This document shows, piece by piece, positions 1-42,636 of a stretch of 52,425 nt of DNA. The first letter of the stretch is position 1, and the number at the start of each line of letters is the position of its first letter. Source of the DNA: Patescibacteria group bacterium (lineage in GTDB: Bacteria; Patescibacteriota; Minisyncoccia; UBA6257; GWB1-50-10). Under the pieces are notes generated by a model. It saw only the letters and a list, made by a program, of their open reading frames with translations. It searched no databases and was not told the DNA's origin. The stretch lies in contig JBBTQX010000009.1 of the NCBI GenBank assembly GCA_038065455.1, positions 1 through 52,425 on the forward strand, written 5' to 3'. A program made the translations under genes and the position numbers.

Positions 1-1177
1 CAAGGTAAGCGTCGCGGTCTATGTCCTGCTCAACGTAGAGGTCGGTTAGGCGGGCAATACGGGTGTCTATATCGGCTGTCCTTGCCCGTAGGGCTTGGAC
101 GGACGCCGATGCCACGCTTTCGGCCTCTACCGCGTCTTGATCGGTCATGGACAGTAATTCTTTGCCCCATTCTTGGGGCAGGACAAAGCGGGAGAGCAGG
201 GCGGATAGTTGGGCGGCTAACGCCTCCTCTCGGATATACGGCTCCGAGCAAGGGCCGCGCTTCCTCGTACAGCGATAGTAAATATGGCCTTTCTGCTTCT
301 CGGCGGTTATGGAGCAACCGCACTCGCCGCATTGTAAAAGGCGGCACAGGGCTTGCGATTCCTTTTTTGCTTTCTGCTTTCTGCCTCGCATTTCCAAAAC
401 GCGCTGAACTTTATCAAAAAGAGTTTTGGAAACGATAGGCGTGTGCGTTCCTTTGTGTATCTCTCCGGCGTATTCAAAATCGCCGTAGTAAAAGGTGTCG
501 GTAAGAACACGCTTCGCTCTGTTCTTTGACCACACCTTGCCGCCGCCGCTTCCGCTCCGGCTTCCGGTGCGTATGCCGTTGTCGGAAAAAAAGTTGGCGA
601 TGTCTTCCAAGCGCGACTGACCTTCGGCATATAACTCAAAGGCGCGAACGACAATAGGAGCTTTGCGTCTATCAACATCGTGCCGCTTTGTGTGCGGATT
701 GTTTATATAACCGACACGCGCGGGGCCGGGATATTCTCCGCGCCGCGCTTTCGCCCTCAATCCGCGTCGCGTGTTATACGCCAAGTCGCGGACGTATTGC
801 GTCGCCATGCCGAACTCAACGGCCATCAAAAGCACACTGTCTTTTGAGTAGTAGCTCCGCTCCGGCGTTTGTATGTGTTGGATTGCTCCCTGTTGGAGCA
901 ACCAACTGACTTGTCCGTTATCAACCGGATTGCGACCCAAGCGGTCAAGTTTCCAACAGACAACGCCCTGCGCTTCGCCGCGCTGTATTCGCTCAACCAT
1001 TTCGTTGAAGCGAGGACGGCCCGGCGTCTTGGCCGATTGCTTCTCCACAAACTCCGCCGCAATCTCCAAACCTTCGCGCTTGGCGAGCGAGCGCAATTCG
1101 GATAGTTGCGATTCTATGGAGAGGACTTGCTTGTCCTCAACATCGGTACTTTTTCGGGCGTAGAGAAAATAGCTCAT
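1..1177 (-). CDS. Large serine recombinase (resolvase + recombinase + zinc-ribbon domains), 3'-partial
   Basis: Manual translation from ATG 1177 stays open to the window edge: MSYFLYARKSTDVEDKQVLSIESQ (catalytic Ser), WKLDRLGRN, GEYPGPARVGY, HTPIVSKTLFDKVQ, zinc ribbon CGECG...YYRC...C, coiled coil RLTDLYVEQDIDRDAY. It is absent from the ORF track, probably because it has no stop codon in the window. Confidence 0.95.
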   Translation of the reverse strand, partial: MSYFLYARKSTDVEDKQVLSIESQLSELRSLAKREGLEIAAEFVEKQSAKTPGRPRFNEMVERIQRGEAQGVVCWKLDRLGRNPVDNGQVSWLLQQGAIQHIQTPERSYYSKDSVLLMAVEFGMATQYVRDLAYNTRRGLRAKARRGEYPGPARVGYINNPHTKRHDVDRRKAPIVVRAFELYAEGQSRLEDIANFFSDNGIRTGSRSGSGGGKVWSKNRAKRVLTDTFYYGDFEYAGEIHKGTHTPIVSKTLFDKVQRVLEMRGRKQKAKKESQALCRLLQCGECGCSITAEKQKGHIYYRCTRKRGPCSEPYIREEALAAQLSALLSRFVLPQEWGKELLSMTDQDAVEAESVASASVQALRARTADIDTRIARLTDLYVEQDIDRDAYL

Positions 1178-1178
1178 A

Positions 1179-1233
1179 TACGTATTGTAGTATACTACAA
1201 TACGTAGTGTAGAATACAATAACCAGTTATACT
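1179..1233. promoter_or_regulatory. Tandem operator (28-bp perfect palindrome plus degenerate copy) and divergent promoter region
   Basis: TACGTATTGTAGTATACTACAATACGTA (1179-1206) is a perfect palindrome. 1179-1200 and 1201-1222 are 22-bp direct repeats (18/22 identical). TATACT at 1228-1233 lies 7 nt before the XRE ATG. Confidence 0.75.
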
Positions 1234-1240
1234 ATGGGGA

Positions 1241-1447
1241 ATGAGCAACGAGGCGCAAAAATTAGGCCGAAACTTGAAACGAATACGAACGGAAAAAGGC
1301 ATATCGCAGGGCGATATTGTCCGTTCTCTCGGAATGGACAGGGCTTTTGTGAGCAACATAGAAAATGGAAAGACGAATCCCACGCTTGCGACGATTGCGA
1401 AGCTCGCAAAGGCACTCGGTGTTAAGATTGAGGAACTGATCAAATAA
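1241..1447 (+). CDS. XRE-family HTH regulator (RM controller protein-like)
   Basis: LKRIRTEKGISQGDI...SNIENGKTNPTLATIAKLAKALGV is a Cro/C1 HTH; the gene directly precedes mod. Confidence 0.92.
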   Translation: MSNEAQKLGRNLKRIRTEKGISQGDIVRSLGMDRAFVSNIENGKTNPTLATIAKLAKALGVKIEELIK

Positions 1448-1451
1448 TTTT

Positions 1452-3143
1452 ATGACTAAGAGCAATAAATACGATAATTATACAAAGGACGAGTTAATAG
1501 ATGAGTTAGAAACTCTGAAGAAAAAGAAGTATGGGTTGGTGTGGGACAAAAAGAACTCGCAAGAAATTCTTGACGCTTTTGTAAATTGGGAGAATGTCCC
1601 AGAAAATTTTGTGCCAAAACAGTTTCCGGTTTTAAAGGAAATTAAGAATAAAGAAATAAAAACAGACAAAACTAAACCAGTAAATCTCCTGATTGAGGGA
1701 GATAACTACCACTCACTCGCCGTATTGAATTTTACGCACCAAAGTAAAATTGACCTCATTTACATTGACCCACCCTATAACACAGGTAATGAAGATTTTA
1801 TTTATAATGACAAATTTATTGATAAAGAAGACCCATACCGACATTCAAAATGGCTCTCCTTTATGGACAAGCGTTTGCGTTTAGCTCTTGGTCTCTTAAA
1901 AGATACAGGGGCAATCTTTATTTCGATTGATGATAATGAACAAGCACAGTTGCGTTTATTGTGCGATGAAATTTTCGGAGAACAAAATTTTGTATCCACA
2001 ATAATTTGGCAAAGAGCATATAGTCCCAAGAACCAGTCGCGACATATTTCTATTGATCACGAATATATTTTAGTCTATGCAAAAGATATAGAACATCTAA
2101 ATGTTCGACTGCTACCCAGAACGGATAAGATGAATGCTCGTTATAAGAATCCAGATAATGACCCGCGCGGTGTGTGGAAGCCGGGCGATATAGTTGCCAA
2201 CGAGGAGCGAAAGACTGGGCACTACATCATTACAGGACCAAAGGGAGATAAATTTGATGCTCCTGCTGGTAAACATTGGTCATACGCACAAGACAACATG
2301 CTTGAGTTGCAAAAAGATAATCGACTTTATTTCGGCAAGAATGGGAATGCCTTCCCGTCTCTCAAGCAGTTTTTAGATGAAGTACAGCAAGGACGAAAAG
2401 CTTCTACGCTATTCTTCCATGAAGAGGTAGGACACAATGACGAGGCAAAAAAAGAGTTGAAAGATTTTTTTGAACAATCAGATGATCTATTTTCTACACC
2501 AAAACCGACTCGCTTAATCAAGCAGATACTCCGGTTGATTGGAGATAAAAATGCTGTTGTTCTGGATTTTATGGCTGGCTCGGGAACAACAGGCCAAGCT
2601 GTACTCGCTTTGAATGACGAAGATAGAGGGGAAAGGTCTTTTATTTTGTGTACAAACAATGGCGATGAAAAAGCAGAACACAAAATTGCTTCTGACATTT
2701 GCTACCCAAGAATTAAAAAATCAATTTTAGGCTATAAGAAAACTAAAGGGGATACGGAGAAAGGGCTTGGTGGGAACTTAAAATATTTTAAAACCGATTT
2801 TGTTGGTTCTGACGCAAACGATAAGAACAAGCGTGATTTAGTGAAGCAATCAACGGAAATGATCTGTATCAAAGAAGATGTTTTTGATTTGATGATTGAT
2901 GAAGGTTTTGATTTCAAGATTTATCAAAAGGGCAAAAAGTTTTTAGGTATCGTGTTTGATATGAGTATGTTAGAGGCCTTCAAAAAAGAGGCGGAAAAAC
3001 ATATAGGCGATTTTTCAGTCTATTGCTTCTCGTATAATGAGACTACGCCCGATAAAGAGTTTGTCGGTCTAAAAAATAAATATACTTTTAAGCCGATACC
3101 GGCAGTTATTTTGAAGGTATATTTAGAGATATTTAAAAAATGA
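1452..3143 (+). CDS. mod: Type III RM methyltransferase subunit (beta-class N6-adenine MTase)
   Basis: LIEGDN, IYIDPPYNTG (motif IV) placed before VLDFMAGSGTTG (motif I), TPKP; its stop overlaps the res start. Confidence 0.93.
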   Translation: MTKSNKYDNYTKDELIDELETLKKKKYGLVWDKKNSQEILDAFVNWENVPENFVPKQFPVLKEIKNKEIKTDKTKPVNLLIEGDNYHSLAVLNFTHQSKIDLIYIDPPYNTGNEDFIYNDKFIDKEDPYRHSKWLSFMDKRLRLALGLLKDTGAIFISIDDNEQAQLRLLCDEIFGEQNFVSTIIWQRAYSPKNQSRHISIDHEYILVYAKDIEHLNVRLLPRTDKMNARYKNPDNDPRGVWKPGDIVANEERKTGHYIITGPKGDKFDAPAGKHWSYAQDNMLELQKDNRLYFGKNGNAFPSLKQFLDEVQQGRKASTLFFHEEVGHNDEAKKELKDFFEQSDDLFSTPKPTRLIKQILRLIGDKNAVVLDFMAGSGTTGQAVLALNDEDRGERSFILCTNNGDEKAEHKIASDICYPRIKKSILGYKKTKGDTEKGLGGNLKYFKTDFVGSDANDKNKRDLVKQSTEMICIKEDVFDLMIDEGFDFKIYQKGKKFLGIVFDMSMLEAFKKEAEKHIGDFSVYCFSYNETTPDKEFVGLKNKYTFKPIPAVILKVYLEIFKK

Positions 3144-5377
3144 TTATGGAAACAAACTTACAATTAAAAGATTATCAAGAGGAAAAAGTTGAGGAGTTGA
3201 AAGATAAAGTCAACGAACTTTTGGAATTAGATGGAAATTCGCTTTGTATATTTGAAGCTCCTACCGGATCGGGCAAAACAGTCATGGCGGGAGAATTTCT
3301 CAAGCGTCTTGTAAATCCGATTGACCGAGAAGACGGCAAGCAGTTTTCTATAATTTGGATTTCCGTCCGCGACTTGCACAACCAAAGCAAAAAAGCACTA
3401 ACGAAGAATTTTGAAAATGATTTTCGCTATTCACATTTTGAAGACTTAAGAAGCAATGTAATCGGCAAAAACGAGATTTTGTTTTTGAACTGGGAGAAAA
3501 TCTACAACCAAGACAGGGTATATATTCGTGATAATGAGAAAGGGAAAAATCTCTCAAATATCGTTGAAAATACCAAGCAGGCCGGTAGAGATATTATTTT
3601 GGTAATTGACGAGAGCCATCATACGAGCTTGGGACCAAACGCAACAAGGGTGCGTGCCGATATTGCGGCGAAAATTACCCTTGAAGTTTCAGCTACACCT
3701 ATATTCAAAGACCCCGACGCTCATGTGAAAGTCCATTTTGAGAAGGTTATCGCCGACGGAATGATTAAGAAAGAAATTGCTATCAATCCCGAATTCAAAA
3801 AATTTAAGGTGGACGGCAAGAGCAGTCGGGAAATGGTGATAAACGCCGCAATCGCAAAACGCGAGGAACTTCTGAAAGCATATAAAGCCGAGGGGAGTAA
3901 TGTAAACCCACTTTTGCTTATCCAGTTACCCAACTTACAAAAAGGTATAAACGATTTAGATAAAGATGTTTTACTTGATGTTCAGAAAATCCTTAAAACG
4001 AAATATGACATAACCGAAGAAAACGAGCGGTTGGCAATCTGGCTCTCGGAAAATAAAACGCCGAATTTGGTGAATATTGAAAAACCAGCGAATGAGGTTG
4101 AGGTTTTGATTTTCAAACAGGCCATCGCACTTGGTTGGGATTGTCCTCGCGCACAAATACTGGTCATTTTTAGAGAAACTGGAAGCAGAGTATTTTTGAT
4201 ACAAACTGTCGGGCGCATAATGCGTATGCCCGAATTTAAACACTACAAAGATCACCCCGAATTAAATAAGGCGTATGTTTTTACAAACATCGGTGTTAAT
4301 GAAATAAAACTTGGAGATGAGATAGCTAAAGAATACTTTACTATTCAAGAAGCAAAACGCAGAGACAAAGTATATAAAGATATAAACCTACCCTCAATAC
4401 ATTTCAAAAGACAAAGAGAGAAAACAAGGTTGTCCGGTGCATTTACTACCATTTTTATGGATATTTCCGAGAAGCAGAAATTGAAAGAAAGATTAGATAT
4501 TAAGAAACGCGAAATCTCTAATGAAATAATGGTTGACGGAAAAGTAATCAACCTTGATAAAGCGCGGGAGATTCAGCACTCAATAATGAGCTATCACTCG
4601 CCAGCGATGGAAATACAAACCTACTATGATCTTTTCTGTAAAGCGAGTACGGGCGAATTCGCCCCAGTTGATTCAATGGACAGGATTAAAACGGCGTTAA
4701 ACAAATTCTTCGTCAAGGCGTTTAAATTTGAAAATGATGATCCAGAATTTCATAAAATAATTCTGAATCCATCTAATATAACAAAAGTAAGTGCGTCTTT
4801 AGTGTTAGCGAGAGAGGAATATAAGAGAGTGGTTGTTGCGAAAGACGAAGAAAGAGAAATGGAAAGTCTTGTTTGGAATGTACCAAAAATACTTAGCTAC
4901 AACAGCAAGTATAAAGCGAAAAATTACAAAAAAGCGGTAATGTCTCCATACTATTCAAAGTATGGAGAATCCAGTAAGGAGGAAGACAGTAATGTTGAAA
5001 TAGAATTCATCAAGTATCTTGAGAATTCTAAAGCGGTGGAGTGGTGGTTTAAAAACGGCTCCGGTGAAATAAATTATTTTGCTGTTCCTTATAAAGACAA
5101 ACACGGCAAAATGGCGGCGTTTTATGTTGACTTCGTTGTTCGTTTGAAGAATAGAGAAGTTTGGCTATTGGATACCAAAAAAGGACAAACGGCAGAAGAC
5201 GCAAAAGAACGGGCGGAGGGACTAGCGAAATATATAAAAGGACAAAAGAAAAAAGGAAAGAAATTGTCCGGCGGTATCGTCATTCCTGTTGACGATCAAT
5301 GGAGGTATAACGATAAAGAAAAATACGAGTACAATCCAAATGACCACAAGGACTGGAAAGTTTTGGATTTAAATTAA
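3140..5377 (+). CDS. res: Type III RM restriction subunit (SF2 helicase + PD-(D/E)XK nuclease)
   Basis: APTGSGKT, IDESHH, GWDCPRA, QTVGRIMR, C-terminal FYVDFVV...LDTK; ATGA coupling to mod. Confidence 0.92.
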   Translation: MIMETNLQLKDYQEEKVEELKDKVNELLELDGNSLCIFEAPTGSGKTVMAGEFLKRLVNPIDREDGKQFSIIWISVRDLHNQSKKALTKNFENDFRYSHFEDLRSNVIGKNEILFLNWEKIYNQDRVYIRDNEKGKNLSNIVENTKQAGRDIILVIDESHHTSLGPNATRVRADIAAKITLEVSATPIFKDPDAHVKVHFEKVIADGMIKKEIAINPEFKKFKVDGKSSREMVINAAIAKREELLKAYKAEGSNVNPLLLIQLPNLQKGINDLDKDVLLDVQKILKTKYDITEENERLAIWLSENKTPNLVNIEKPANEVEVLIFKQAIALGWDCPRAQILVIFRETGSRVFLIQTVGRIMRMPEFKHYKDHPELNKAYVFTNIGVNEIKLGDEIAKEYFTIQEAKRRDKVYKDINLPSIHFKRQREKTRLSGAFTTIFMDISEKQKLKERLDIKKREISNEIMVDGKVINLDKAREIQHSIMSYHSPAMEIQTYYDLFCKASTGEFAPVDSMDRIKTALNKFFVKAFKFENDDPEFHKIILNPSNITKVSASLVLAREEYKRVVVAKDEEREMESLVWNVPKILSYNSKYKAKNYKKAVMSPYYSKYGESSKEEDSNVEIEFIKYLENSKAVEWWFKNGSGEINYFAVPYKDKHGKMAAFYVDFVVRLKNREVWLLDTKKGQTAEDAKERAEGLAKYIKGQKKKGKKLSGGIVIPVDDQWRYNDKEKYEYNPNDHKDWKVLDLN

Positions 5378-5387
5378 ACAAAATATC

Positions 5388-6647
5388 ATGGCCAAGCAAG
5401 AAATAAAAGAAATTAAAGTAGACGAGCTACATCTTTGGTCAGAGAATCCACGTGATCCTATAGACCCAAAGAGCTCAGACTTCGACATAATCAAACGTGC
5501 CATTGACGAGAATCCGAGCGATTGGAACTTGGACAAGATGGTAAAGGAAATGGGTAATCATTATGATTTTAGTGAGATTCCGACAGTGGTGTACCTTGAG
5601 GGTGTTCCTGCTGTGTTCGACGGCAACCGTCGTATCGCTGTACTCAAATATCTTCAAGACAAAACACTCTATTCGTCGTTGACCGGCAAACTCTTCCCGA
5701 ATAGCGATGGCCCTAAAGAGCTTCAAGAACTTCTAGAAATACCTTGCAATGTATGCGATAAGGACACCGCACTAACCAACATTGAACGAAAGCATATCAG
5801 TAATGGCTCGTGGGGGACGCTCCAAAGAGAGTACTTTCTACATCGTCATCGCGGACAACCAAAGAGCTTATTCCTCATTCTCGAAGAACAGACCAAGCTC
5901 ATTAGCACTCACCCAGCTCTCAACCAAGGTTTTGTGAAGGACGAAGTATTCACGGAGAAGAATCTCAAGGAGATCGGCTTTGGAGTGCAGAGCGACCAAC
6001 TCGTTTCCAACTATGACGACGATGGACAAAAGAAAGTGCTAGAGCAAGCCAGCTCACTTGTTGAGAGCAAGGATATAACGACTCGCAAAAATCGAGGCTC
6101 ACTGAAGCAGACGCTGTTGCAAAAGTATCCAGAAAGCAAAAGCACTCTTACTACCTTTGATAGCACTAAAAAGGTTGAGGTGGTAGACCACGAGTTCACA
6201 ACACCGCCAGTTCGGAGAACACCGCGAGCGAATGGACAAGAACCCGAATTTTTCGGTAAACACTTATCACTAAAGACGGGCGAGACGAACAATCTCTACA
6301 GGGACATTACCGACCTGTATTCCTACTATCGAGACAACAAGACGACACTCTCAAAGAGCTTTTGCGCTCTGATACGGATGTCGCTCCGTTTGATCGTGGA
6401 ATCGGCGGCTACTAAAAAGATAGATGATTACGTTAAGCGTCATTTTGAGGCGGCTAAGAAGCAGCTCACCGCAGACCAAAAGACCACTCTCTCAACCCAA
6501 GAAGTGGATACTGCGGCGAAACTTACCAAGCTACTGCAAGTTGGTGCTCACAAGTACACAGCTTCGGCCAACATGGAGCAAACGATGGCCATGTCCATTA
6601 TTATTGGTGCTATGCTAGAAACAACTCATTCAAAAAAGAAGAAATGA
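5388..6647 (+). CDS. ParB/Srx-like N-terminal domain protein with helical (possibly HEPN-like) C-terminus
   Basis: LWSENPR and VFDGNRRIAVLK ParB/Srx motifs; C-terminal IRMSLRLIVE...LQVGAHK; ATGA overlap with the next gene. Confidence 0.7.
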   Translation: MAKQEIKEIKVDELHLWSENPRDPIDPKSSDFDIIKRAIDENPSDWNLDKMVKEMGNHYDFSEIPTVVYLEGVPAVFDGNRRIAVLKYLQDKTLYSSLTGKLFPNSDGPKELQELLEIPCNVCDKDTALTNIERKHISNGSWGTLQREYFLHRHRGQPKSLFLILEEQTKLISTHPALNQGFVKDEVFTEKNLKEIGFGVQSDQLVSNYDDDGQKKVLEQASSLVESKDITTRKNRGSLKQTLLQKYPESKSTLTTFDSTKKVEVVDHEFTTPPVRRTPRANGQEPEFFGKHLSLKTGETNNLYRDITDLYSYYRDNKTTLSKSFCALIRMSLRLIVESAATKKIDDYVKRHFEAAKKQLTADQKTTLSTQEVDTAAKLTKLLQVGAHKYTASANMEQTMAMSIIIGAMLETTHSKKKK

Positions 6648-7492
6648 TAAGGATACCTAATAAGCGCGGCCCAAGGTCTCATGTTAGTCCTCTGCGATAC
6701 CCCGGGGGCAAAACTTTTCTATTCCCTTTCTTTGAAAAGTTGATTAAGGAAAATAATCTCAAACATATTACATATGTTGAGCCATTCGCGGGTGGTGCAG
6801 GTGCGGCTCTCGCTCTGCTGTTGGCGGGAAAGGTTGATAAAATCGTTATCAACGATCTTGATAAGGCAATATTTTCTTTCTGGCAATCAGCCATTTTTAA
6901 TTCGGAGGAATTTGCGGAGAAAATACGCACGACCCCGATAACAGTTCGGGAGTGGAAAAAGCAAAGAGATATTTATAACAATCCGAAGTCGGAATGTTTT
7001 GATCTGGGTTTCGCCGCTTTTTTTCTGAACCGAACAAATGTTTCCGGTATTTTGGACGGAGGCCTCATAGGCGGTTTGGATCAATCAGGCACATATAAAA
7101 TAACGGCGAGATTTAACAAAGAAAGTCTGATAAAGAGAATACAGCGACTGGCTGTATACAAAGACAGAATCTCTATTTTTAACAGAGACGGGATATCATT
7201 GATTAAAGACTATCTGAACAAGAAAAATGTTTTTATATATCTTGACCCGCCTTATTATGACAAAGGGGCCAGCCTGTATCTTAACCACTACAAAAAGGAA
7301 AATCACGAGGCATTGGCAAGTGAGTTGAATGGGAACCCCAACGCTTTTTGGCTGCTTACATACGATAACAAGAAGCAAATCAAATCCTTATATCCGGACA
7401 GAGAAACTCACGGATTCTCCCTCAACTACAATGCTTATAAATCCCGCAAAGGTAAGGAAATTCTGATAATGTCAGATGCTTTTGCTGTATAA
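6644..7492 (+). CDS. Dam-like (D12 class) DNA adenine methyltransferase
   Basis: SPLRYPGGK, YVEPFAGG, INDLD, YLDPPYY, LTYD. Confidence 0.93.
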   Translation: MIRIPNKRGPRSHVSPLRYPGGKTFLFPFFEKLIKENNLKHITYVEPFAGGAGAALALLLAGKVDKIVINDLDKAIFSFWQSAIFNSEEFAEKIRTTPITVREWKKQRDIYNNPKSECFDLGFAAFFLNRTNVSGILDGGLIGGLDQSGTYKITARFNKESLIKRIQRLAVYKDRISIFNRDGISLIKDYLNKKNVFIYLDPPYYDKGASLYLNHYKKENHEALASELNGNPNAFWLLTYDNKKQIKSLYPDRETHGFSLNYNAYKSRKGKEILIMSDAFAV

Positions 7493-7584
7493 GGGAGTTT
7501 CGCCGACCTGCAAGCGGCGAAAAATATAACTCTTATAACACGCGCACGGGAGGGCTGGGGCAAGTGTTATATCTAAAAGTATTC

Positions 7585-7848
7585 GACCTCCCTCCAAAAA
7601 ATCCTCCCTCCAAAAATCTTCGGCTTTCGTATTTTGAACCTCACACTACAAGCGCGCGAAGGCTAAAGCATTGCTGTTTGTATCTAATCGCTTCGCTCTT
7701 AGACAAACAGGGAACGCGCGGCGTGCCCATGAATCCGTGGTTTTTCCTCGATGAGGAAAAACAAAAATTAGGGAAAATCCCTTTGAGTTCTATTCTGGTG
7801 TCTGTATTGTACCAAACTCGCACCTATTTCCAAAACAAAGTGAGGTAA
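7585..7848 (+). pseudogene. Decayed 3' end of a serine recombinase gene
   Basis: Frameshifted reading DLPSKKSSLQ-IFG..LNLTLQARE/[~55 nt hairpin insert 7661-7715]/RGVPMNPWF...SSILVSVLYQTRTYFQNK resembles CPR LSR C-termini as I recall them. Pattern recognition only, not a search result. Confidence 0.5.
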
Positions 7849-8111
7849 TGACTTCGCACGCTCCGCGTGCGTGGTGGCTTGAAACTGCCCCGTACGCTCG
7901 GAGAAAGCCCCACGCACTGGCGAGTACGCCAGCAACCCCGAAAGAAAAACACCCTTTCCTTTTTCAAAAGAAATTGGTCGCGCGCAAATCAGAAATCGCA
8001 AACAAAACTTTTCTTTGGCGTGGCGAGTGGTAGCGAGCGGCGGCGAGCTGGCTTCCTTGGTCAGTTTCGTTCAAAAAAGGTTCGCGCATTTTCAAACAAA
8101 GGGCACCAGAA
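7793..8111. repeat. ~320-bp unit bounded by inverted att-like arms
   Basis: TTCTGGTG (7793-7800) and CACCAGAA (8104-8111) form a perfect 8-bp IR. The arms continue as imperfect IR encoding LYQTRTYFQNK (+) and LFENARTFFERN* (-). Several internal hairpins. Confidence 0.6.
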
Positions 8112-8413
8112 GTAACTTTGATATATCCTTCATGTTAGCTGAATCAAATCAGCAGGGGAAGTTATTATTTTTAGAAAATAAGGATAGTATCGGAGCTATT
8201 CTGATGGACGGTAATTTGTCGGACGGAGATAGCCTGTCTCTCGTATCGGAAATAATCAACGAATATGATTTCCCGCCAGAGAAAATAATTTCTATATCCG
8301 GCAATGATTCAATCCAAAGAGAGATGAGATATATAGGATGCGGGGTTTGTCCCAAACCCTTTTCCCTGTATGATATTCTCAAAGCCATCCAAAAAGCGGC
8401 TACAGAATCTTAA
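8112..8413 (+). pseudogene. CheY-like response regulator receiver domain, 5'-truncated
   Basis: AILMDGNL (phospho-acceptor Asp), IISISG and PKPF are present. The beta1 acidic pocket and alpha1 are missing; the upstream part of ORF 8015..8413 is island-end sequence. Confidence 0.65.
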
Positions 8414-8423
8414 TAAGATAAAC

Positions 8424-8463
8424 AAAGGCTTTTCCAGAAAAATGGAAAAAGCCTTTATTTTTT
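8424..8463 (+). terminator. Intrinsic terminator
   Basis: AAAGGCTTTTCCA...TGGAAAAAGCCTTT stem followed by a T-tract. Confidence 0.7.
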
Positions 8464-8532
8464 CTTGCTTGCATTTGAAATATTTCCTATTCTGAAATCA
8501 GCCACTTATTAACCACAACCCGAGGAGGGAAC

Positions 8533-9348
8533 ATGAAACGAATTGCAATCCAGATCGCTTGCGCCGTTTTTTTCTTCTTTTTATCTTTTAAATTAACTAT
8601 TCGCACGCCAGCGCCGTCGGACAAGCGCGTAAAAACAATGAACGGGGGAATAGATTATGCCGCCAAATACGCAGGTATAAAAACCCGTAGGGAGTATTTC
8701 GCCGCCGTGTTTTCCGACCCCAGACTGCAAATCGACAGCGGCATCGTGAAAATGGCAAAAAGCAGAAATAAAGGGAAAGGAATTAATTATCAGTTTCTCT
8801 ATACCGAATCTTCAATCCAAGCTGGAAAAAGATTCATCGAGGATCGCGGCGAAGTTCTCGAGAAAGTCCGCCAAAAATACGGCGTGTCCCCGAACTTCAT
8901 CGCCGCCATTCTTCGGCTGGAAACGAACTTCGGCAGTTTTATCGGCAATCATCTCGCGGTGAACGCGCTTTATACCGTCGGATTGGCTTATCCGAAAAAA
9001 AGCCGCGATGCCCGCCGCCAACTCAATTCTTTCATCGATCTTTCGAGAAAGTATGGCTGGGACCCTTTCTCGATAAAAAGCTCTTGGGCCGGCGCTTTCG
9101 GCATCCCGCAATTTATGCCCGGTTCTTTTGCTTATGCGGTTGATGGCAATGGCGACGGAGTTATCGACTTATTCAATATGGACGATGCCGTTATGAGCGC
9201 GGGTAACTTTCTTAAAATCCACGGCTGGCGCAACAATGACCCTTTGGCGGAGAAAAATGCCTTAAGGAGTTATAATAGGGGAAGCTATGCGGATGCCATC
9301 ATTAAATATGCCGCTATGCTTAAGAAAAATAACAAACAAACCCGGTGA
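8533..9348 (+). CDS. Lytic murein transglycosylase, MltB/SLT_2 family
   Basis: N-terminal hydrophobic anchor; ILRLETNFG (catalytic Glu), SSWAGAFGIPQFMP, EF-hand DGNGDGVID, SYNR; RBS GAGGAGG. Confidence 0.9.
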   Translation: MKRIAIQIACAVFFFFLSFKLTIRTPAPSDKRVKTMNGGIDYAAKYAGIKTRREYFAAVFSDPRLQIDSGIVKMAKSRNKGKGINYQFLYTESSIQAGKRFIEDRGEVLEKVRQKYGVSPNFIAAILRLETNFGSFIGNHLAVNALYTVGLAYPKKSRDARRQLNSFIDLSRKYGWDPFSIKSSWAGAFGIPQFMPGSFAYAVDGNGDGVIDLFNMDDAVMSAGNFLKIHGWRNNDPLAEKNALRSYNRGSYADAIIKYAAMLKKNNKQTR

Positions 9349-9371
9349 AAAGATAACTTTGCCGGGTTTTT
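9338..9371 (+). terminator. Intrinsic terminator
   Basis: AAACCCGG...CCGGGTTTTT overlapping the stop codon. Confidence 0.65.
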
Positions 9372-9378
9372 ATATACC

Positions 9379-9407
9379 TTGACAAAATGAAAATAGCGTG
9401 CTAATCT
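9379..9407 (+). promoter_or_regulatory. Sigma70-type promoter
   Basis: TTGACA-17-TAATCT with extended TG. Confidence 0.6.
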
Positions 9408-9470
9408 ATAACCAAGCAATTTGAAATAACGTTTTAAAGTTTTAAATTAACTTTTTGAAAGGAGGCCGCT

Positions 9471-10094
9471 ATGACGGCTCTGTTCAACAATACCAGGATT
9501 TTACTTCTGCAATTTAATTTTTCGAATCCGAAATTGATTCCTTCGGGAATCCGTTTCGAACCCAATAAATCTGCGGAAGAGGAGAAAAAAACCGGCGGCG
9601 TAATGCTCATATCGCCGACTGAGGAAGCTTCGCTTTCACTTCTGCTCGATCAATTCGGAGAGGAGGGTTATGAGCTTACCGATGCATACTATCGGAGGCC
9701 AAATAATCCGAAAAATCCTGGCGGTAAGTTTAATTCCCTTTTCTTTATGTTTGCCAGTCATGAATATGCGAATATGACAGGGGAGTTTAAGAAAACCCGC
9801 GGGCTAGTCTATAAAGAACTCCGGAAGATCTGTGAGACGTCCATATGGACGGTCAAGATCTTTGAAAACCCCTTCTTTGAAAAAGAAGGGGAGGAGATTC
9901 CAGGTCAACACGCAATGATCGTCAATTGCGTGGCGCGAGTGCCACTGTTTCAGCCGGATGGAAATCCGGTTCTGGAATGGAAGAAGAATGAGCACGGCAA
10001 TCGGATAGGCGATAAGCCGGTCCCGATTGAGCCTGATAATTATGTCCTCGTGATTGACGAAAGCGAGGATAGGGATATGGCAGAAGCAGTATAA
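9471..10094 (+). CDS. Hypothetical protein
   Basis: 207-aa ORF with GGAGG RBS, its own promoter and a downstream hairpin; no family recognised. Confidence 0.8.
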   Translation: MTALFNNTRILLLQFNFSNPKLIPSGIRFEPNKSAEEEKKTGGVMLISPTEEASLSLLLDQFGEEGYELTDAYYRRPNNPKNPGGKFNSLFFMFASHEYANMTGEFKKTRGLVYKELRKICETSIWTVKIFENPFFEKEGEEIPGQHAMIVNCVARVPLFQPDGNPVLEWKKNEHGNRIGDKPVPIEPDNYVLVIDESEDRDMAEAV

Positions 10095-10140: not shown

Positions 10141-10274
10141 ATAGCGAAAATGCCGCGATTTAAGCCCGCTAAAGCGGGTTTTTCGTTTGTTTTTGACCCT
10201 AAAATCTGATACAATTAAAGAGTAAATTAGACAGGAAAAATCAGCCCCAAGGCTGCATTTTCTTCTTGATTCCA

Positions 10275-13200
10275 ATGGCAAAAAACAAGGAAAACAAACC
10301 GAAAAAAGAGGTTTCTTATGACGCCAAAGACATCTATGTTCTTGAAGGTTTAGAGCCTGTTCGCAAGCGACCGGGAATGTATATCGGCTCCACGGGAGTC
10401 GAGGGATTGCACCATCTCATCTGGGAAGTTATGGACAACTCCATCGATGAGGCGATGGCCGGCTACGCCAAAAACATCCGCATCGAAATATTGAAAGGGG
10501 AGCGCATCGTGGTTGTGGACGACGGCCGCGGTATTCCCGTGGATATTCATCCGCAGACGAAGAAATCCGCGCTCGACACCGTCTTGACCACGCTTCACGC
10601 GGGCGGCAAGTTCGGCGGAGAATCATACAAAGTTTCGGGCGGTTTGCACGGCGTGGGCGTCTCGGTCGTGAACGCGCTTTCCAAATGGCTGAAAGTCGAA
10701 GTCTACCGGAACGGCGCGGTCTATACCCAGGAGTATGAGCGGGGCAAGCCGAAGTTCAACGTGAAAAAAGTCGGCACTTCGAAGCATACCGGCACGAAAG
10801 TCATCTTTGATGCCGATCCGGTAATTTTCCAAAAAATCGAGTACGACCGCAAAAAAATCCTGGACCATCTGCGCCAGCAAAGCTATCTCACGAAAGGCGT
10901 CCGCATCAGTTTCGTGGATGACCGCGACGAACATCCGTTCTACTACGGCTTTTATTTCGACGGCGGTTTGAAATCTTTCATCCATTATCTCATCGGCGAC
11001 GAGCCGACGCTCCAAGATGAGCCTTTTTACGCACACAAATTTTACGAAAATATAGAAGTGGAAGTCGTCTTCACATATGCGGACGACCAGGAAGCGAAGG
11101 AATTAAGTTTTGCAAACAACATCCATACGCCGGACGGCGGCATGCATTTGACGGGTTTGCGCTCGGCGATGACCCGCGTTTTGAACGATTATGCGCGGAA
11201 GGAAAATTATCTGAAAGAAAGCGAGGAGAATATTACCGGCGATGATATTCGCGAAGGCCTGGTCTCGATCGTTTCCATAAAGCTTCCCGAGCCGCAGTTC
11301 GAAGGCCAGACTAAGGCTCGCTTGGGCAATCCCGAAGCGCGTACCGCTGTCGAGATGGTGGTGAGTGAAACACTCAAAGAATTTTTGGAAAAGCACGGCT
11401 CGGACGGACGGAAGATAATCGAAAAGAATCTTTTAGCTGCGAAGGCCCGCAAGGCCGCTAAGGCCGCCAAAGACACCGTTCTCCGGAAAGGCGCTTTGGA
11501 GGGATTGACTCTGCCCGGCAAGCTCGCCGACTGTTCTTCCCGCAAAGCCGAAGACTCGGAATTATTCATAGTCGAGGGAGATAGTGCTGGGGGCTGTTGG
11601 TTTGGAAAAACTGAAGTTGCGTTGACGGACGGCAGAAATTTATCCTTCGAAAAAATAGTTGAAGAACACGATCAAGGTAAGAAAAATTATTGCTATACAA
11701 TAAAAAATAATGGCGACATTGGAGTTGAGTTGATAAGAAATCCGAGGAAGACGAAAAAGAATGCGGAAGTAATTAAGGTCATTTTGGACAATAACGAGGA
11801 GTTAATATGCACCCCCGATCACAAATTTATGCTGGCCGATGGCTCATATAAAGAAGCTCAAAACCTTCAGAAGAGCGACTCTTTGATGCCTTTGTATCGC
11901 CAATACTCGAAATTGGGTAAAAAAATCACGATCGAAGGATATGAGATGGTTTTTGATCCGGCGGAAAAGAGATGGATCTTCACCCATCTTCTCTCGGACA
12001 AATACAATTTGGAAAACGGGAAATATTCCGCGGTTAGCGGTTATTATCGCCATCACAAAGATTTCAACAAGTTGAACAATGATCCGGAGAATATTATGCG
12101 TTTATCCAATATGGCCGAAAAATTCTTGGAATTTTACAACTCCAACGAAGAATACCGGAAAAAGAACAATGAATTATTGGATGAAAGCCAGCGGGAATAT
12201 TGGAATAGTGAAGAAAACAGAAAAATCCAAGCGGAGCGGGTGAGGAATTTCTTTGCCGCGCATCCGGAGAGAGTAAGAGAATTTTCGGAACTCGCACAAG
12301 CTCAATGGCAGAATGAAGATTTGCGTAAATGGCGCTCGGAAAAGACCAAGGGTCAATGGACGCCGGAGTTCCGTGTGAAAAGGAAATACACTTATAACGA
12401 AACCTACCGTGAAAAAGCGATGCGGGTTTTGCGCGATTTATACGATCGTACCGGCGCGATTTCAATCGAGAAATACGACGAATTCCGCCGGAAGACGAAT
12501 GACAAATCCCTCCTGCGTTTTGATACCATTCTGAACAGGTTCTTCGAGGGTAGGAAGGAACGTCTTTTCGATGCGGTGATTCACTATAACCATAAAATTA
12601 TTCGCATCGAGAAAATGTCGGAAAGAATCGACGTCTACGATCTGGAAGTACCTGGCACGCACAATTTCGCTCTCGCAAGCGGCATATTCGTTCATAACAG
12701 CGCCAAGCAGGGCCGCGACCGGCACACTCAGGCCATCCTGCCTTTGAAGGGCAAGATCTTGAATGTGGAAAAATCCCGAATAGATAAGATGCTCGTGAAC
12801 AAGGAAATCCGTTCGCTCGTGATTGCCTTGGGTACCGCTATCTCGGATAACTTCGATATCGAGAAGCTCCGTTACCACAAAATAGTTTTGATGACTGATG
12901 CCGATGTGGACGGCGCGCACATTCGTACTTTGCTTTTGACGCTTTTCTTCCGCTACTTCCCGAAGATAATCGAGAATGGCCATTTATATATTGCCCAGCC
13001 GCCGCTTTTCCAATTACAGAAAGGGAAGGAGAGCCACTACGCGTACAGCGATGCCGAACGCGACAAGATCCATAAACAGATGGGGAGCGAGGGCATCAAC
13101 GTCCAGCGCTATAAGGGTCTCGGCGAAATGAATCCGAGCCAGCTTTGGGAAACTACGATGGATCCGGCGAAAAGGATATTGAAGCAAATCAATGTGGAAG

Positions 13201-13310
13201 ACGTGGTTGCGGCCGACAAGATGTTCGATATCCTGATGGGCGAAATCGTGGAACCCCGCAAGAATTTCATCCAGGCGCACGCTTTGACCGTGAAGAATCT
13301 GGATATCTAG
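10275..13310 (+). CDS. gyrB: DNA gyrase subunit B (intein-containing)
   Basis: EPVRKRPGMYIG, LHAGGKF, GGLHGVG, VEGDSAGG, PLKGKILN, TDADVDG, QRYKGLGEM; 643-aa extein after intein removal. Confidence 0.97.
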   Translation: MAKNKENKPKKEVSYDAKDIYVLEGLEPVRKRPGMYIGSTGVEGLHHLIWEVMDNSIDEAMAGYAKNIRIEILKGERIVVVDDGRGIPVDIHPQTKKSALDTVLTTLHAGGKFGGESYKVSGGLHGVGVSVVNALSKWLKVEVYRNGAVYTQEYERGKPKFNVKKVGTSKHTGTKVIFDADPVIFQKIEYDRKKILDHLRQQSYLTKGVRISFVDDRDEHPFYYGFYFDGGLKSFIHYLIGDEPTLQDEPFYAHKFYENIEVEVVFTYADDQEAKELSFANNIHTPDGGMHLTGLRSAMTRVLNDYARKENYLKESEENITGDDIREGLVSIVSIKLPEPQFEGQTKARLGNPEARTAVEMVVSETLKEFLEKHGSDGRKIIEKNLLAAKARKAAKAAKDTVLRKGALEGLTLPGKLADCSSRKAEDSELFIVEGDSAGGCWFGKTEVALTDGRNLSFEKIVEEHDQGKKNYCYTIKNNGDIGVELIRNPRKTKKNAEVIKVILDNNEELICTPDHKFMLADGSYKEAQNLQKSDSLMPLYRQYSKLGKKITIEGYEMVFDPAEKRWIFTHLLSDKYNLENGKYSAVSGYYRHHKDFNKLNNDPENIMRLSNMAEKFLEFYNSNEEYRKKNNELLDESQREYWNSEENRKIQAERVRNFFAAHPERVREFSELAQAQWQNEDLRKWRSEKTKGQWTPEFRVKRKYTYNETYREKAMRVLRDLYDRTGAISIEKYDEFRRKTNDKSLLRFDTILNRFFEGRKERLFDAVIHYNHKIIRIEKMSERIDVYDLEVPGTHNFALASGIFVHNSAKQGRDRHTQAILPLKGKILNVEKSRIDKMLVNKEIRSLVIALGTAISDNFDIEKLRYHKIVLMTDADVDGAHIRTLLLTLFFRYFPKIIENGHLYIAQPPLFQLQKGKESHYAYSDAERDKIHKQMGSEGINVQRYKGLGEMNPSQLWETTMDPAKRILKQINVEDVVAADKMFDILMGEIVEPRKNFIQAHALTVKNLDI
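11595..12698 (+). mobile_element. Intein (368 aa) with HNH-type endonuclease remnant
   Basis: EGDSAGG|CWFGKTEV..., block B CTPDHKF, C-terminal VYDLEVPGTHNFALASGIFVHN|SAKQ; internal HHKDFNKLNNDPEN. Confidence 0.95.
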
Positions 13311-40626: not shown

Positions 40627-42636
40627 ATGAATGATTTTCAATTAATTTCAAAAAATAAGCCCGCGGGAGATCAGCCGAGGGCGATAAAGGAATTGGTTTC
40701 CGGCCTCAAAAAAGATTACAAAAACCAGACGCTTTTGGGCGTCACGGGCTCCGGTAAGACCTTCACAATTGCGAACGTGATAGCCGAAATCCAGAAGCCG
40801 ACGCTCGTCATCGCCCATAACAAGACCTTGGCCGCCCAGCTTACGAACGAATTTCGCGAGCTTTTTCCGAATAACTCGGTGAACTACTTCGTTTCTTATT
40901 ACGATTATTATCAGCCGGAGGCCTATATGCCTTCGTCCGACACTTATATCGAGAAGGAGGCGATGATAAACGACGAGATAGACAAGCTCCGCCACGCGGC
41001 GACGGCGGCTCTTTTGACGCGCAAAGACGTTATCGTAGTTGCTTCCGTCTCTTGCATCTACGGCCTGGGTTCGCCTAAAGCATACCGCGAAAATATTTTC
41101 CATTTGAAACCCGGCGATCGGCTGGAACGCGATGAATTCATCAAAAAGCTCGTGGAACTCCAATTCACCCGGACGAACTCCGACCTGAAGCGGGCGACCT
41201 TCCGCGTGCGGGGCGACAACTGGGAAATAATGGCGCCGGACCGCGATGTTATCTATAACTTCCAAATAAGAAACGGTGCTATCAATAAAATATACGAGGT
41301 GGAGCCGGCCAAGGGATTTCGGCCGGGCAAGACGCCGGAATTGCCGGAAATATATATCGCGCCGGCCAAGCACTTCATCACGCCGCCCGACGACCGCGAC
41401 CGGGCACTCAAAGCCATCAAAGAGGAGTTGAAAAGCCAATTGAAAAAATTCGAAAAAGAAAAGAAATTTCTGGAGGCGGAGCGGATAGAACGCCGCACCA
41501 AAGCCGACATGGCGATGATGAAGGAGGTTGGGTACTGCCACGGCATCGAAAATTATTCCCGCCATCTTTCCGGACGTGACACAGGAGAGCCGCCCGCCAC
41601 GCTTCTGGATTATTTCCCGAGTTCATCGAACGGCGGATTTTTGACCGTGATAGACGAATCCCACGTGACCATCCCGCAGCTGGGAGGAATGTTCGCGGGC
41701 GACGCTTCGCGCAAAAAGACGCTTATAGACTACGGCTTCCGCCTGCCTTCGGCATCCGATAATCGGCCGCTGACCTTCAAAGAATTCGAATCTCGGGTTG
41801 GCCAGACGATTTACACCTCGGCTACGCCTGCTCCTTTTGAAATAAACAAGAGCGACCCTTCGAAGCACTCAGGGCAAGGGAAAATCGTGGAGCAAATCAT
41901 CCGGCCGACGGGGCTCGTGGATCCCGCGATAACCATAAAGCCGGTCAAAGGGCAGATAGACGATTTGATTGTGAGAATAAAAGACCGAATCGAAAAGAAG
42001 GAGCGCGTGCTCGTGACTACCCTCACAAAGCGGATGGCGGAAGATTTGAGCGCGTACCTGGAAGAATTGAAAATCAAAGTGAATTACCTTCACAGCGATG
42101 TGAAAACATTGGATCGCATCCGCATCCTCACCGATTTGCGGAAGGGGAAGATAGAAGTGCTCGTGGGCGTAAACCTTCTGCGGGAAGGCTTGGATTTGCC
42201 CGAGGTTTCACTCGTCGCGATTCTCGATGCCGACAAGGAGGGTTTTTTGCGAAGCGAAGTATCGCTCATTCAGACTATCGGCCGGGCGGCCAGAAATGAG
42301 AAAGGGGAGGTGCTGATGTATGCCGACAATATCACGGGCTCCATCAGGCGCGCCGTGAGCGAAACCGACCGCCGCCGGAAAATCCAGCTGGCTTACAATA
42401 AAAAACACGGCATCACGCCCAAAACTATCATCAGGGAAATTAGGGACATTCTGCCGGTCGAGGATATTCTGAATCTGGAAACGAAGATACTACCGAAATC
42501 CAAATCGGTCTTGGAAGAGCTTATGAAGCAAAAAGAGAAGGAGATGAAAGAAGCGGCGAAGAATTTGGACTTCGAACTAGCCGCCCTCCTTCGGGATGAA
42601 ATTAAAATATTGAGTAAGAAGACTAAAAACCACTAG
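40627..42636 (+). CDS. uvrB: Excinuclease ABC subunit B
   Basis: GVTGSGKT, HNKTLAAQL, YYDYYQPEAY, DESH, NLLREGLD, QTIGRAARN, C-terminal UVR domain. Confidence 0.98.
   Translation: MNDFQLISKNKPAGDQPRAIKELVSGLKKDYKNQTLLGVTGSGKTFTIANVIAEIQKPTLVIAHNKTLAAQLTNEFRELFPNNSVNYFVSYYDYYQPEAYMPSSDTYIEKEAMINDEIDKLRHAATAALLTRKDVIVVASVSCIYGLGSPKAYRENIFHLKPGDRLERDEFIKKLVELQFTRTNSDLKRATFRVRGDNWEIMAPDRDVIYNFQIRNGAINKIYEVEPAKGFRPGKTPELPEIYIAPAKHFITPPDDRDRALKAIKEELKSQLKKFEKEKKFLEAERIERRTKADMAMMKEVGYCHGIENYSRHLSGRDTGEPPATLLDYFPSSSNGGFLTVIDESHVTIPQLGGMFAGDASRKKTLIDYGFRLPSASDNRPLTFKEFESRVGQTIYTSATPAPFEINKSDPSKHSGQGKIVEQIIRPTGLVDPAITIKPVKGQIDDLIVRIKDRIEKKERVLVTTLTKRMAEDLSAYLEELKIKVNYLHSDVKTLDRIRILTDLRKGKIEVLVGVNLLREGLDLPEVSLVAILDADKEGFLRSEVSLIQTIGRAARNEKGEVLMYADNITGSIRRAVSETDRRRKIQLAYNKKHGITPKTIIREIRDILPVEDILNLETKILPKSKSVLEELMKQKEKEMKEAAKNLDFELAALLRDEIKILSKKTKNH

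Follow-up and report, generated by a model that had tools for sequence, protein, structure and literature searches.

A unit of about 320 bp at positions 7793–8111 of the window, a 52,425-nt stretch of DNA (contig JBBTQX010000009.1 of assembly GCA_038065455.1) from a Patescibacteria group bacterium, is probably an empty cargo bay: its two inverted arms would be the P′ halves of sites of an island whose large serine recombinase (LSR) targets tRNA genes, and the slot that they enclose is nearly empty. The homologies, junctions and family-wide architecture behind this reading are shown by sequence comparison. Because the window fits the order of features found across the family, the unit is read as a bay reduced to two abutting arms. 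An earlier note, made from the letters of the window, had proposed one attachment site (attP) with two inverted arms, carried by a mini-element or an invertible switch. Its core intuition was right, as the homology of the arms to LSR tails and the cores shared among related loci identify them as att-type LSR sites. Each arm, however, is the P′ half of a separate site together with ~150 nt of element end, and the unit is an empty slot, not a device in itself.

The inverted ends were confirmed by direct reading. TTCTGGTG lies at 7793–7800 and its reverse complement CACCAGAA at 8104–8111, with CGCACCTATTTCCAA placed 18 nt inward of the left copy and CGAACCTTTTTTGAA 19 nt inward of the right copy on the minus strand. 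After the core, both arms carry a short frame of the [LIV][YFL]xxxRT[YFH]F type, which reads …LVSVLYQTRTYFQNKVR in the plus frame of the left arm and FWCPLFENARTFFERN in the minus frame of the right arm, each up to a stop codon. The spacing, translations and hairpins given in the earlier note were thus all found in the sequence. The 8-nt inverted repeat alone is at chance level: 36 inverted pairs of at least 8 nt occur in 7400–8300 (901 nt), and the TTCTGGTG/CACCAGAA pair is outside the 25 longest of them. The tails are far above chance. The pattern RT[FY]F[EQ] has ten matches in the six frames of the 654-kb genome (G000, ten contigs, of which the window is C9), all at most 13 codons before a stop, compared to a mean of 2.3 matches in 30 dinucleotide shuffles (near a stop, mean 0.7 and maximum 3).

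A homologue search with the LSR of the window returned 2,223 proteins at E ≤ 1e-20, and the end classes of the 120 listed were read. Antisense T-arm peptides such as GFEP, GLEP or GIEP end 77 of these proteins, 22 stop before the junction, 12 fall in no class and nine have native tails. One of the nine, P0026 (515 aa), ends in …LSTLLVSLLYQTRTYFQNK, nearly identical to the left tail of the window. In genome G023, a 517-aa LSR ends in …AKSTIW followed by RRGWESNPQ, the antisense reading of tRNA-Ser, and the adjoining LSR C-terminal fragment ends in …AKSTIW followed by RSFLIDVRTFFEQNPD and a stop. On the basis of the P0026 alignment, the native-tailed homologues and the G023 pair, the tails are, by homology, native C termini of an LSR family with attP in the last codons of its own gene. 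An att site inside a recombinase gene, at which the C terminus is swapped, had been anticipated in the earlier note; P0026 and eight others show the unswapped end.

The recombinase of the window, LSR1, lies in the same island as the unit, which bears out the suspected linkage to an LSR gene. LSR1 exceeds the curated cut-offs of PF00239 (77.3 bits), PF07508 (57.1 bits) and PF13408 (35.4 bits), and an alignment of 30 LSR sequences shows no variation in the YxRKST motif or in the Cys columns; its domain set is that of a large serine recombinase. The 464-aa protein P0001 is 100% identical to LSR1 and ends in …DAQMLGEILKTDDLPSKKSSLQKIFGSNLTLQAREG, a peptide encoded at C5:1–110. The gene of LSR1 thus extends across a 108-nt gap to the beginning of contig C5 (G000:C5:1–245). 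There its 3′ end abuts the antisense of tRNA-Leu(gag), located at C5 c[243,329]. Window 7584–7800 is 94% identical to G000:C5:36–245, a copy that ends at the tRNA gene, and the match stops at the GTG of the left core. Since the C5 copy is the 3′ end of LSR1, 7584–7800 is an inverted duplicate of that end (dP), in frame with a native tail; the dP frame MNPWFFLDEEKQKLGKIPLSSILV (7729–7848) aligns to residues 480–515 of P0026 (58% identity, E 8e-7). The earlier expectation that homology would end at the arms therefore holds in part. Breaks were found at the GTG of the left core and at ~8106–8109, but LSR homology continues to the left of 7793, which is thus not an element end.

Both LSR1 3′-end copies have in common, by three-frame comparison, a 53-nt hairpin insert (window 7662–7714 and G000:C5 ~107–160; stem CTGTTTGT…ACAAACAG). 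The insert shifts the frame so that LSR1 stops after QAREG, ~50 codons short of the family length, and the island copy in the window is for this reason probably immobile. Contigs without exactly these 53 nt occur in sequencing runs X5 and X9, and 42–47-nt matches at 95–96% identity occur in genomes G026 and G005; the hairpin may be a tiny mobile insert.

At the right arm, window 8059–8108 has two inverted counterparts at 96% identity on contig C6 (25076–25123 and 27875–27924), which are the tips of ~160–185-nt inverted repeats around 2.7 kb, and homology within the genome stops at 8106–8108. The surrounding 640 nt (7493–8132) contain no gene, Rfam, tRNA or tmRNA match and form a mosaic of repeats. 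Parts of this stretch are matched in 23 of 61 genomes (G000 included), often at contig ends and often in multiple copies, and one 55-nt match at 100% lies in another family of the same order. Homologues of the left arm, each with a different left flank, were found in G017, G018, G035, G048, G050 and G057, and those of the right arm in G003, G018, G022 and G023. The complete unit is present once in G000, its parts recurring separately and in other combinations.

Contigs from sequencing runs point to the same boundary. Of 24 runs found and kept as contigs, four metagenome runs (X1, X5, X9 and X10) were compared with window 1–9500. The depth of summed contigs over 7609–8242 is ~10–70 times that of the flanks, and the Logan contigs of all four runs break at the repeats, none spanning the 320-bp unit. 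Unique contigs restart at 8079, from where single long X1 and X5 contigs run past 9500; if Logan words are assumed to be 31 letters, the repeat would end at ~8109. The right flank (8135–9500) is present at a depth of 120 in X9 and 11 in X10, and the island (1586–7291) at 0–4. As X9 and X10 hold the flank and almost none of the island, relatives without the island exist and the island is variable.

The family was surveyed by scanning species-representative genomes with a 30-homologue alignment. At least 599 stretches matched and at least 590 were confirmed as relatives; the best 80 loci, which belong to Patescibacteria lineages, were kept for all locus counts. The LSR is cut by the locus end in 18 of the 80, and its stop is readable in 62. 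In 59 of these 62 the LSR runs into an antisense tRNA, either called by ARAGORN (49) or recognized by an antisense T-arm signature only (10); native tails were found in two and another ending in one. Including tRNA-Ser of G023, 14 tRNA identities are represented (Val, Cys, Leu, Gly, Gln, Glu, Tyr, Asn, Thr, Arg, Lys, Ile, Pro and Ser). These junctions agree with the earlier observation that TGGTG is the reverse complement of the CACCA end of tRNA.

An inverted copy was looked for in the 69 loci that hold the LSR 3′ region (11 without it were dropped). The last 140–170 nt of the LSR recur inverted upstream of the gene in 55 of the 69, at 72–100% identity and 124–8,995 nt (median 1,314) from the LSR start, and a native tail follows the inverted copy across the core. 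Inverted copies are often 97–100% identical to the 3′ end of their own LSR, compared to 50–60% between LSRs of different genomes; the copy evolves in concert with the LSR 3′ end. In the 32 tails readable in the 55 loci, the Arg codon is CGA in 16, AGA in 12, CGT in three and CGC in one, never a non-Arg codon, ACC occurs in 26 and TAT in 23, which shows that the tails are under both DNA and coding constraint. Where at least 1,500 nt lie beyond the inverted copy (22 loci), a converging second P′ arm was found in 11, with arms of 106–356 nt that are 77–100% identical and enclose bays of 2.9–8.3 kb. In the orientation of the LSR, the order is flank, inward-reading tail, bay, converging tail joined through the core to dP, LSR gene, and P arm and core joined to the antisense tRNA. 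A second empty bay, of 340 nt, occurs in locus L103.

The content of the bays is mixed. Ten of the 42 non-overlapping open reading frames (ORFs) of at least 100 aa from the 11 bays were checked in Pfam, with matches to DUF2130, M23 and M78 peptidases, a class II aminoacyl-tRNA synthetase and DUF2207 and three without a match, and no function was common to these ten. In L104, the bay between converging tails (2445–9648) holds a class II Asp/Lys/Asn-type aminoacyl-tRNA synthetase gene at 3985–5268, so bays can carry housekeeping-type genes. Two loci with native-tailed LSRs, L063 and L103, were checked for circular forms, and no terminal direct repeat was found.

Comparison of the junctions gave the core. 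The three-way comparison of flank/P′, dP/P′ and P/tRNA revealed shared cores of 3–5 nt in seven loci (GGTGA, GTGA, GCTC, GAG, TGGAG, TGGAG and GGTG), and the window and C5 junctions have GTG/TGGTG in common, a pattern consistent with attP × attB integration and hybrid junctions that share a short core. Farther out lies GAACC, the reverse complement of the T-loop GGTTC, at 13–15 nt from the breakpoint in the tRNA half-site and 17–19 nt in P′. In 20 of the 22 measurable loci (40 examined), the distance of GAACC from the breakpoint is greater by exactly 4 nt in P′; the other two loci give +9 and +20, the latter owing to a variant as the first motif. At the island of the window, the motif is GAACC at 15 nt in the C5 tRNA half-site, GCACC at 19 nt in the left arm and GAACC at 20 nt in the right arm, that is, shifts relative to C5 of +4 (with the GCACC variant) and +5. 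The element half-sites thus appear longer than the host half-sites, which matches the published picture of the LI integrase of a Listeria phage, whose zinc-ribbon motif is 5 bp nearer the centre in attB than in attP (PMC3783163). The P′ GAACC may mimic the tRNA T-loop as a contact of the zinc-ribbon domain.

These data suggest the following architecture. The attP of the family would lie in the last codons of the recombinase gene, with the P arm formed by the 3′ end of the gene, the core by the codon pair TGG plus 2–3 nt, the reverse complement of the tRNA discriminator plus CCA, and the P′ arm by the last 13–17 codons plus downstream DNA. Integration at the 3′ end of a tRNA gene would make the LSR read into the antisense tRNA, while its native tail would end up at the opposite end of the island. 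With a second, inverted attP-like copy upstream of the LSR (~140–170 nt of LSR 3′ end, core and tail), two converging tails bound a cargo bay. In the window, the right arm (8111 to 7955) would be the terminal junction of P′, core and chromosomal flank, and the left arm (7793–7962), together with 7584–7800, the internal inverted attP-like copy. Read on the minus strand, the island would comprise the flank (8110), the D-type tail and arm (8105–7955), the B-type arm and tail (7962–7801), the core (7800–7796), dP (7800–7584), the defence cargo (7492–1452) and LSR1 (1219–2), continued on C5 up to tRNA-Leu(gag). The defence cargo sits between the inverted copy and the LSR, a position in which cargo occurs elsewhere too, at distances to 9 kb. 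We infer that the LSR catalyses the island joints and that the DNA from 8110 onward once lay directly downstream of tRNA-Leu(gag). The unlike arms may record two successive elements at the same tRNA, followed by a deletion; such a succession at tRNA-Leu(gag) is possible since D-type P arms also read into it, the one in G018 as …NCESIIW followed by CAGQELN (read by eye).

Several points weigh against this reading. The arms of the window belong to different subfamilies (left B, right D), and the D tail is out of frame with an LSR1-type P arm, the joined reading being …SILVPFV and a stop; among seven tail pairs, the two tails are identical in five (L047, L050, L052, L058 and L060) and different in two (L066 and L104). 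The right-flank genes are unsupported as the downstream region of tRNA-Leu(gag): DNA of 8112–9400 was matched in none of 40 relatives, and the SLT-domain protein in only one of 12, at 36% identity and in a different genus. In G022, D arms bound 14.4 kb of a 35.7-kb contig on which no LSR was found, and the left one lies 13 nt beyond a tRNA-Leu(gag) in sense orientation, a case that the simple model does not predict. The P and dP repeats exceed assembly words, so mis-joining is possible, and 28 of the 55 loci with an inverted copy end within 300 nt of it; these repeats break assemblies, that of the present genome included. The attP circle, the empty attB and the inverted form were unseen at the locus, where contigs break at repeats. 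For the inverted copy, inversion, alternative second-site integration, cargo exchange and RNA-level regulation are conceivable roles.

Two further observations concern the arms. The long conserved arms reach beyond a half-site, which the model leaves unexplained. In L024 (2596–2740, G022:C37), a perfect 10-bp palindrome, GCACAACGTT-A-AACGTTGTGC, follows tRNA-Leu(gag) and leads, through its right half, into a D-type tail; the palindrome may be a terminator stem or a scar left by the loss of an inverted-repeat segment.

The conserved second, inverted attP raises the question of whether the islands are two-state devices, an idea that we consider doubtful. Recombination of the inverted copy with the LSR/tRNA junction, or within the 140–170-bp P arms, would flip the recombinase segment and so switch the enzyme from a locked form fused to the tRNA to one that has its native tail and is competent for integration, or back, with the cargo bay left as an exchangeable, invertible slot. 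If true, this would be a self-contained control of serine integrase directionality that needs no separate factor and is widespread in Patescibacteria.

It is improbable that the island of the window is itself an invertible switch, in which the LSR inverts either the 320 bp or its own segment, from the inverted copy to the tRNA junction, and the recombinase takes on one of the two tails when excision or inversion occurs. The inverted cores, each with an inward tail, the difference between the two tails, the retention and concerted evolution of the inverted copy in the 55 loci and the presence of the same 53-nt insert in both copies of this genome all fit such a switch. In the window, however, the P arm beside the unit is a fragment, LSR1 itself is truncated and the D tail would be out of frame. 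Across the family, the LSR is tRNA-fused in 59 of the 62 readable loci and the mirror state was not found, and bay orientation does not differ between the related elements L047 and L050. Serine integrases are reported to pair attP with attB, other pairings being inefficient (PMC3783163). No inverted form was seen, but the contigs are broken at the repeats, hence this is no test.

An accidental juxtaposition, with two decayed elements of different subfamilies meeting at their tails around a bay that serves no purpose by design, is quite unlikely. It would account for the B and D arm types, for the D arms without an LSR on the G022 contig and in the scanned 12 kb of G018:C7 and for the tandem remnant in L103, where a junction of an LSR 3′ fragment with tRNA-Ile lies 2.5 kb downstream of a native-tailed LSR. 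Against it, the same order recurs in 11 loci with long, near-identical arms, and the inverted copy is kept across the family; it differs from the empty cargo bay in history alone, not in the nature of the arms.

Finally, a non-autonomous element resembling a miniature inverted-repeat transposable element and mobilized in trans, or a structured-RNA gene, as the earlier note had considered, is very unlikely: the inverted termini, small size, hairpin-rich interior and somewhat better folding of the plus strand than of shuffles (z −2.45) speak for it, but the whole unit is single-copy and its arms are of two subfamilies (hence no such mini-element), LSR homology extends past the left terminus, the minus strand gives z −1.02, compensatory changes affect three of the 17 pairs predicted when four B-type arms were folded as an alignment, ARAGORN called neither a tRNA nor a tmRNA in the arm region, and Rfam 15 gave no match in the region when the whole window was searched at the gathering threshold and chance-level hits (E 3.8–7.8) in 7400–8250 at E ≤ 10.

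Table 1 Features of the defence island and its right border in the window
Feature	Position	Strand	Remarks
LSR1, large serine recombinase	2–1219	−	First 406 codons; runs off the contig start; Pfam Resolvase, Recombinase, Zn_ribbon_recom
Mod, type III restriction-modification	1452–3143	+	Pfam N6_N4_Mtase; PADLOC MTase_III 1.6e-105
Res, type III restriction-modification	3140–5377	+	Pfam ResIII; PADLOC REase_III 4.2e-12
PD-Lambda-5 A-like cargo	5388–6647	+	PADLOC PD-Lambda-5_A 9.7e-11
PD-Lambda-5 B-like / D12 adenine methylase	6644–7492	+	PADLOC PD-Lambda-5_B 1.8e-110; Pfam MethyltransfD12
dP, inverted duplicate of the LSR1 3′ end (P arm)	7584–7800	+	Rest of the gene absent; 94% to C5:36–245
Core TGGTG (TGGVG type) of putative internal attP-like site	7796–7800	+	Window/C5 homology breakpoint
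Left arm, subfamily-B P′ arm	7801–7962	+	Homologous arms in six genomes
Native tail of left arm, SVLYQTRTYFQNKVR and stop	7801–7848	+	Nearly the same tail ends full-length LSR P0026
Conserved post-stop hairpin, left arm	7853–7869	+	CGCACG/CGTGCG
Second hairpin, left arm	7917–7932	+	CTGGCG/CGCCAG
Right arm, subfamily-D P′ arm	7955–8103	−	96% to both C6 bay ends
Tail of right arm, CPLFENARTFFERN and stop	8105–8061	−	Followed by ~100 nt of conserved downstream sequence
Core of putative island terminal junction, CACCA on + strand	8104–8108	−	End of own-genome homology
Unique chromosomal flank	from ~8110		Contigs of X1, X5
Small receiver-like ORF and SLT-domain gene	right of 8132

The window thus holds a defence island made up of the LSR, type III restriction-modification and PD-Lambda-5-like cargo, dP and the terminal junction (Table 1). 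The post-stop hairpin of the left arm looks like a local terminator-type stem. To the right of the island, a 207-aa ORF within 8112–10094 has no Pfam match, and this flank may itself be variable. The GyrB ORF at 10266–13310 (1,014 aa) contains an inserted block of ~400 residues, from …GGCWFGKTEV to …VHNSAKQG, that looks like an intein, judged by eye.

Other contigs of the same genome carry related structures. A second bay on C5 is bounded by 174-nt inverted repeats (42330–42500 and 44837–45010, 97.7% identical) with type-E tails and holds methylase-type genes; shortly downstream of it an LSR starts with MNNQTKKFFIYTRKSTD and is truncated by the end of the contig (45139–45189). A third bay, of 2.8 kb, on C6 (25076–27924) has 160-nt inverted arms (98% identical) with type-D tails and contains genes for a helix-turn-helix protein, a J-domain-like protein and two proteins of unknown function; the contig ends 95 nt past the bay, within an LSR-type P arm. 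Joining the C5 end to the C6 end was considered and rejected, as C5 42330–45010 is a bay of its own with type-E tails. The first letters of contig C2 (1–90) are the CCA complement of tRNA-Ser(gga), C1 (1–164) opens with an LSR P arm that reads into tRNA-Tyr, 78 nt from the contig start, and C4 (1–116) starts beside a further tail, LNKIRTFFETNPDEEI and a stop. Both ends of C5 are affected by LSR-element repeats, and the LSR that starts at the C5 end may lead to the tRNA-Ser at the C2 start. In this genome, most breaks in the assembly seem to coincide with LSR elements.

The enzyme belongs to a known class. LSR1 has the same resolvase, recombinase and zinc-ribbon domain set as phiC31, Bxb1, A118/LI, SPbeta, TnpX/TndX and CcrAB integrases, and the family likewise uses short sites with half-sites around a small core. 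Serine integrases generally use protein-coding or intergenic sites, and islands in tRNA genes are reportedly ascribed, in the Islander study, to tyrosine integrases. Unlike known large serine integrases, the window family has attP inside the last codons of the recombinase itself, targets the CCA/T-loop end of many tRNA genes and has a conserved inverted attP duplicate upstream of the gene; these first two traits, together with the putative T-loop mimic 4 nt farther out in P′ (the corresponding offset for LI being 5 bp in PMC3783163), are unusual for serine integrases. A prophage origin of the family was rejected: unlike phage integrases, it is nearly absent from the viral contig collection, in which a single weak locus was found by scanning.

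In its logic, the family comes closest to the archaeal ‘suicidal’ integrase of the SSV type, whose recombination site likewise lies within the integrase gene; SSV1 integrase also targets a tRNA gene. The SSV type is a tyrosine recombinase whose gene is split into two substantial parts, whereas the window family is a bacterial serine recombinase in which only the last 13–17 codons are exchanged for antisense-tRNA codons. It thus has the att site in its own ORF that marks self-disrupting recombinases and lacks the split tyrosine recombinase gene of the SSV type. In mycobacteriophages BPs and Brujita, integration-dependent immunity arises from an attP in the repressor gene, with a tyrosine integrase. 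The likeness is an attP in a coding region and an integration that alters the C terminus and behaviour of a protein; the difference is that a regulatory effect of the tail swap in the window family is hypothetical. Two long inverted repeats with recombinase sites split the yeast 2-micron plasmid (FLP/FRT) into two segments, and Gin and Cin systems have alternative 3′ coding ends at the ends of an invertible segment. The islands resemble FLP/FRT and Gin/Hin systems in having two long inverted repeats, each with a recombinase site, and a recombinase plus a second segment, and differ in that their enzyme is a large serine integrase, expected to reject attP × attP, and in being integrated islands. 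The SSV-type gene is fragmented on integration, and self-disrupting recombinases are stated to be exclusive to archaea, according to the review PMC8371274; the window family would contradict that statement. A literature search turned up nothing on Patescibacteria serine recombinases that target tRNA genes, nor on recombinase 3′ ends duplicated in inverted form, and the site design is undescribed in the literature searched, the coverage of which was limited.

The interest of the 320-bp unit lies in the family architecture behind it. For annotation, LSR-element repeats break assemblies and yield recombinase genes with spurious C termini. For studies of site recognition, the family offers a natural series of integrases with related, distinct tRNA targets. 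With more than two thousand homologous proteins and hundreds of loci in species-representative genomes at the thresholds given above, the family is very large, and it appears to be a main vehicle by which islands, those with defence systems among them, are exchanged in the small Patescibacteria genomes.

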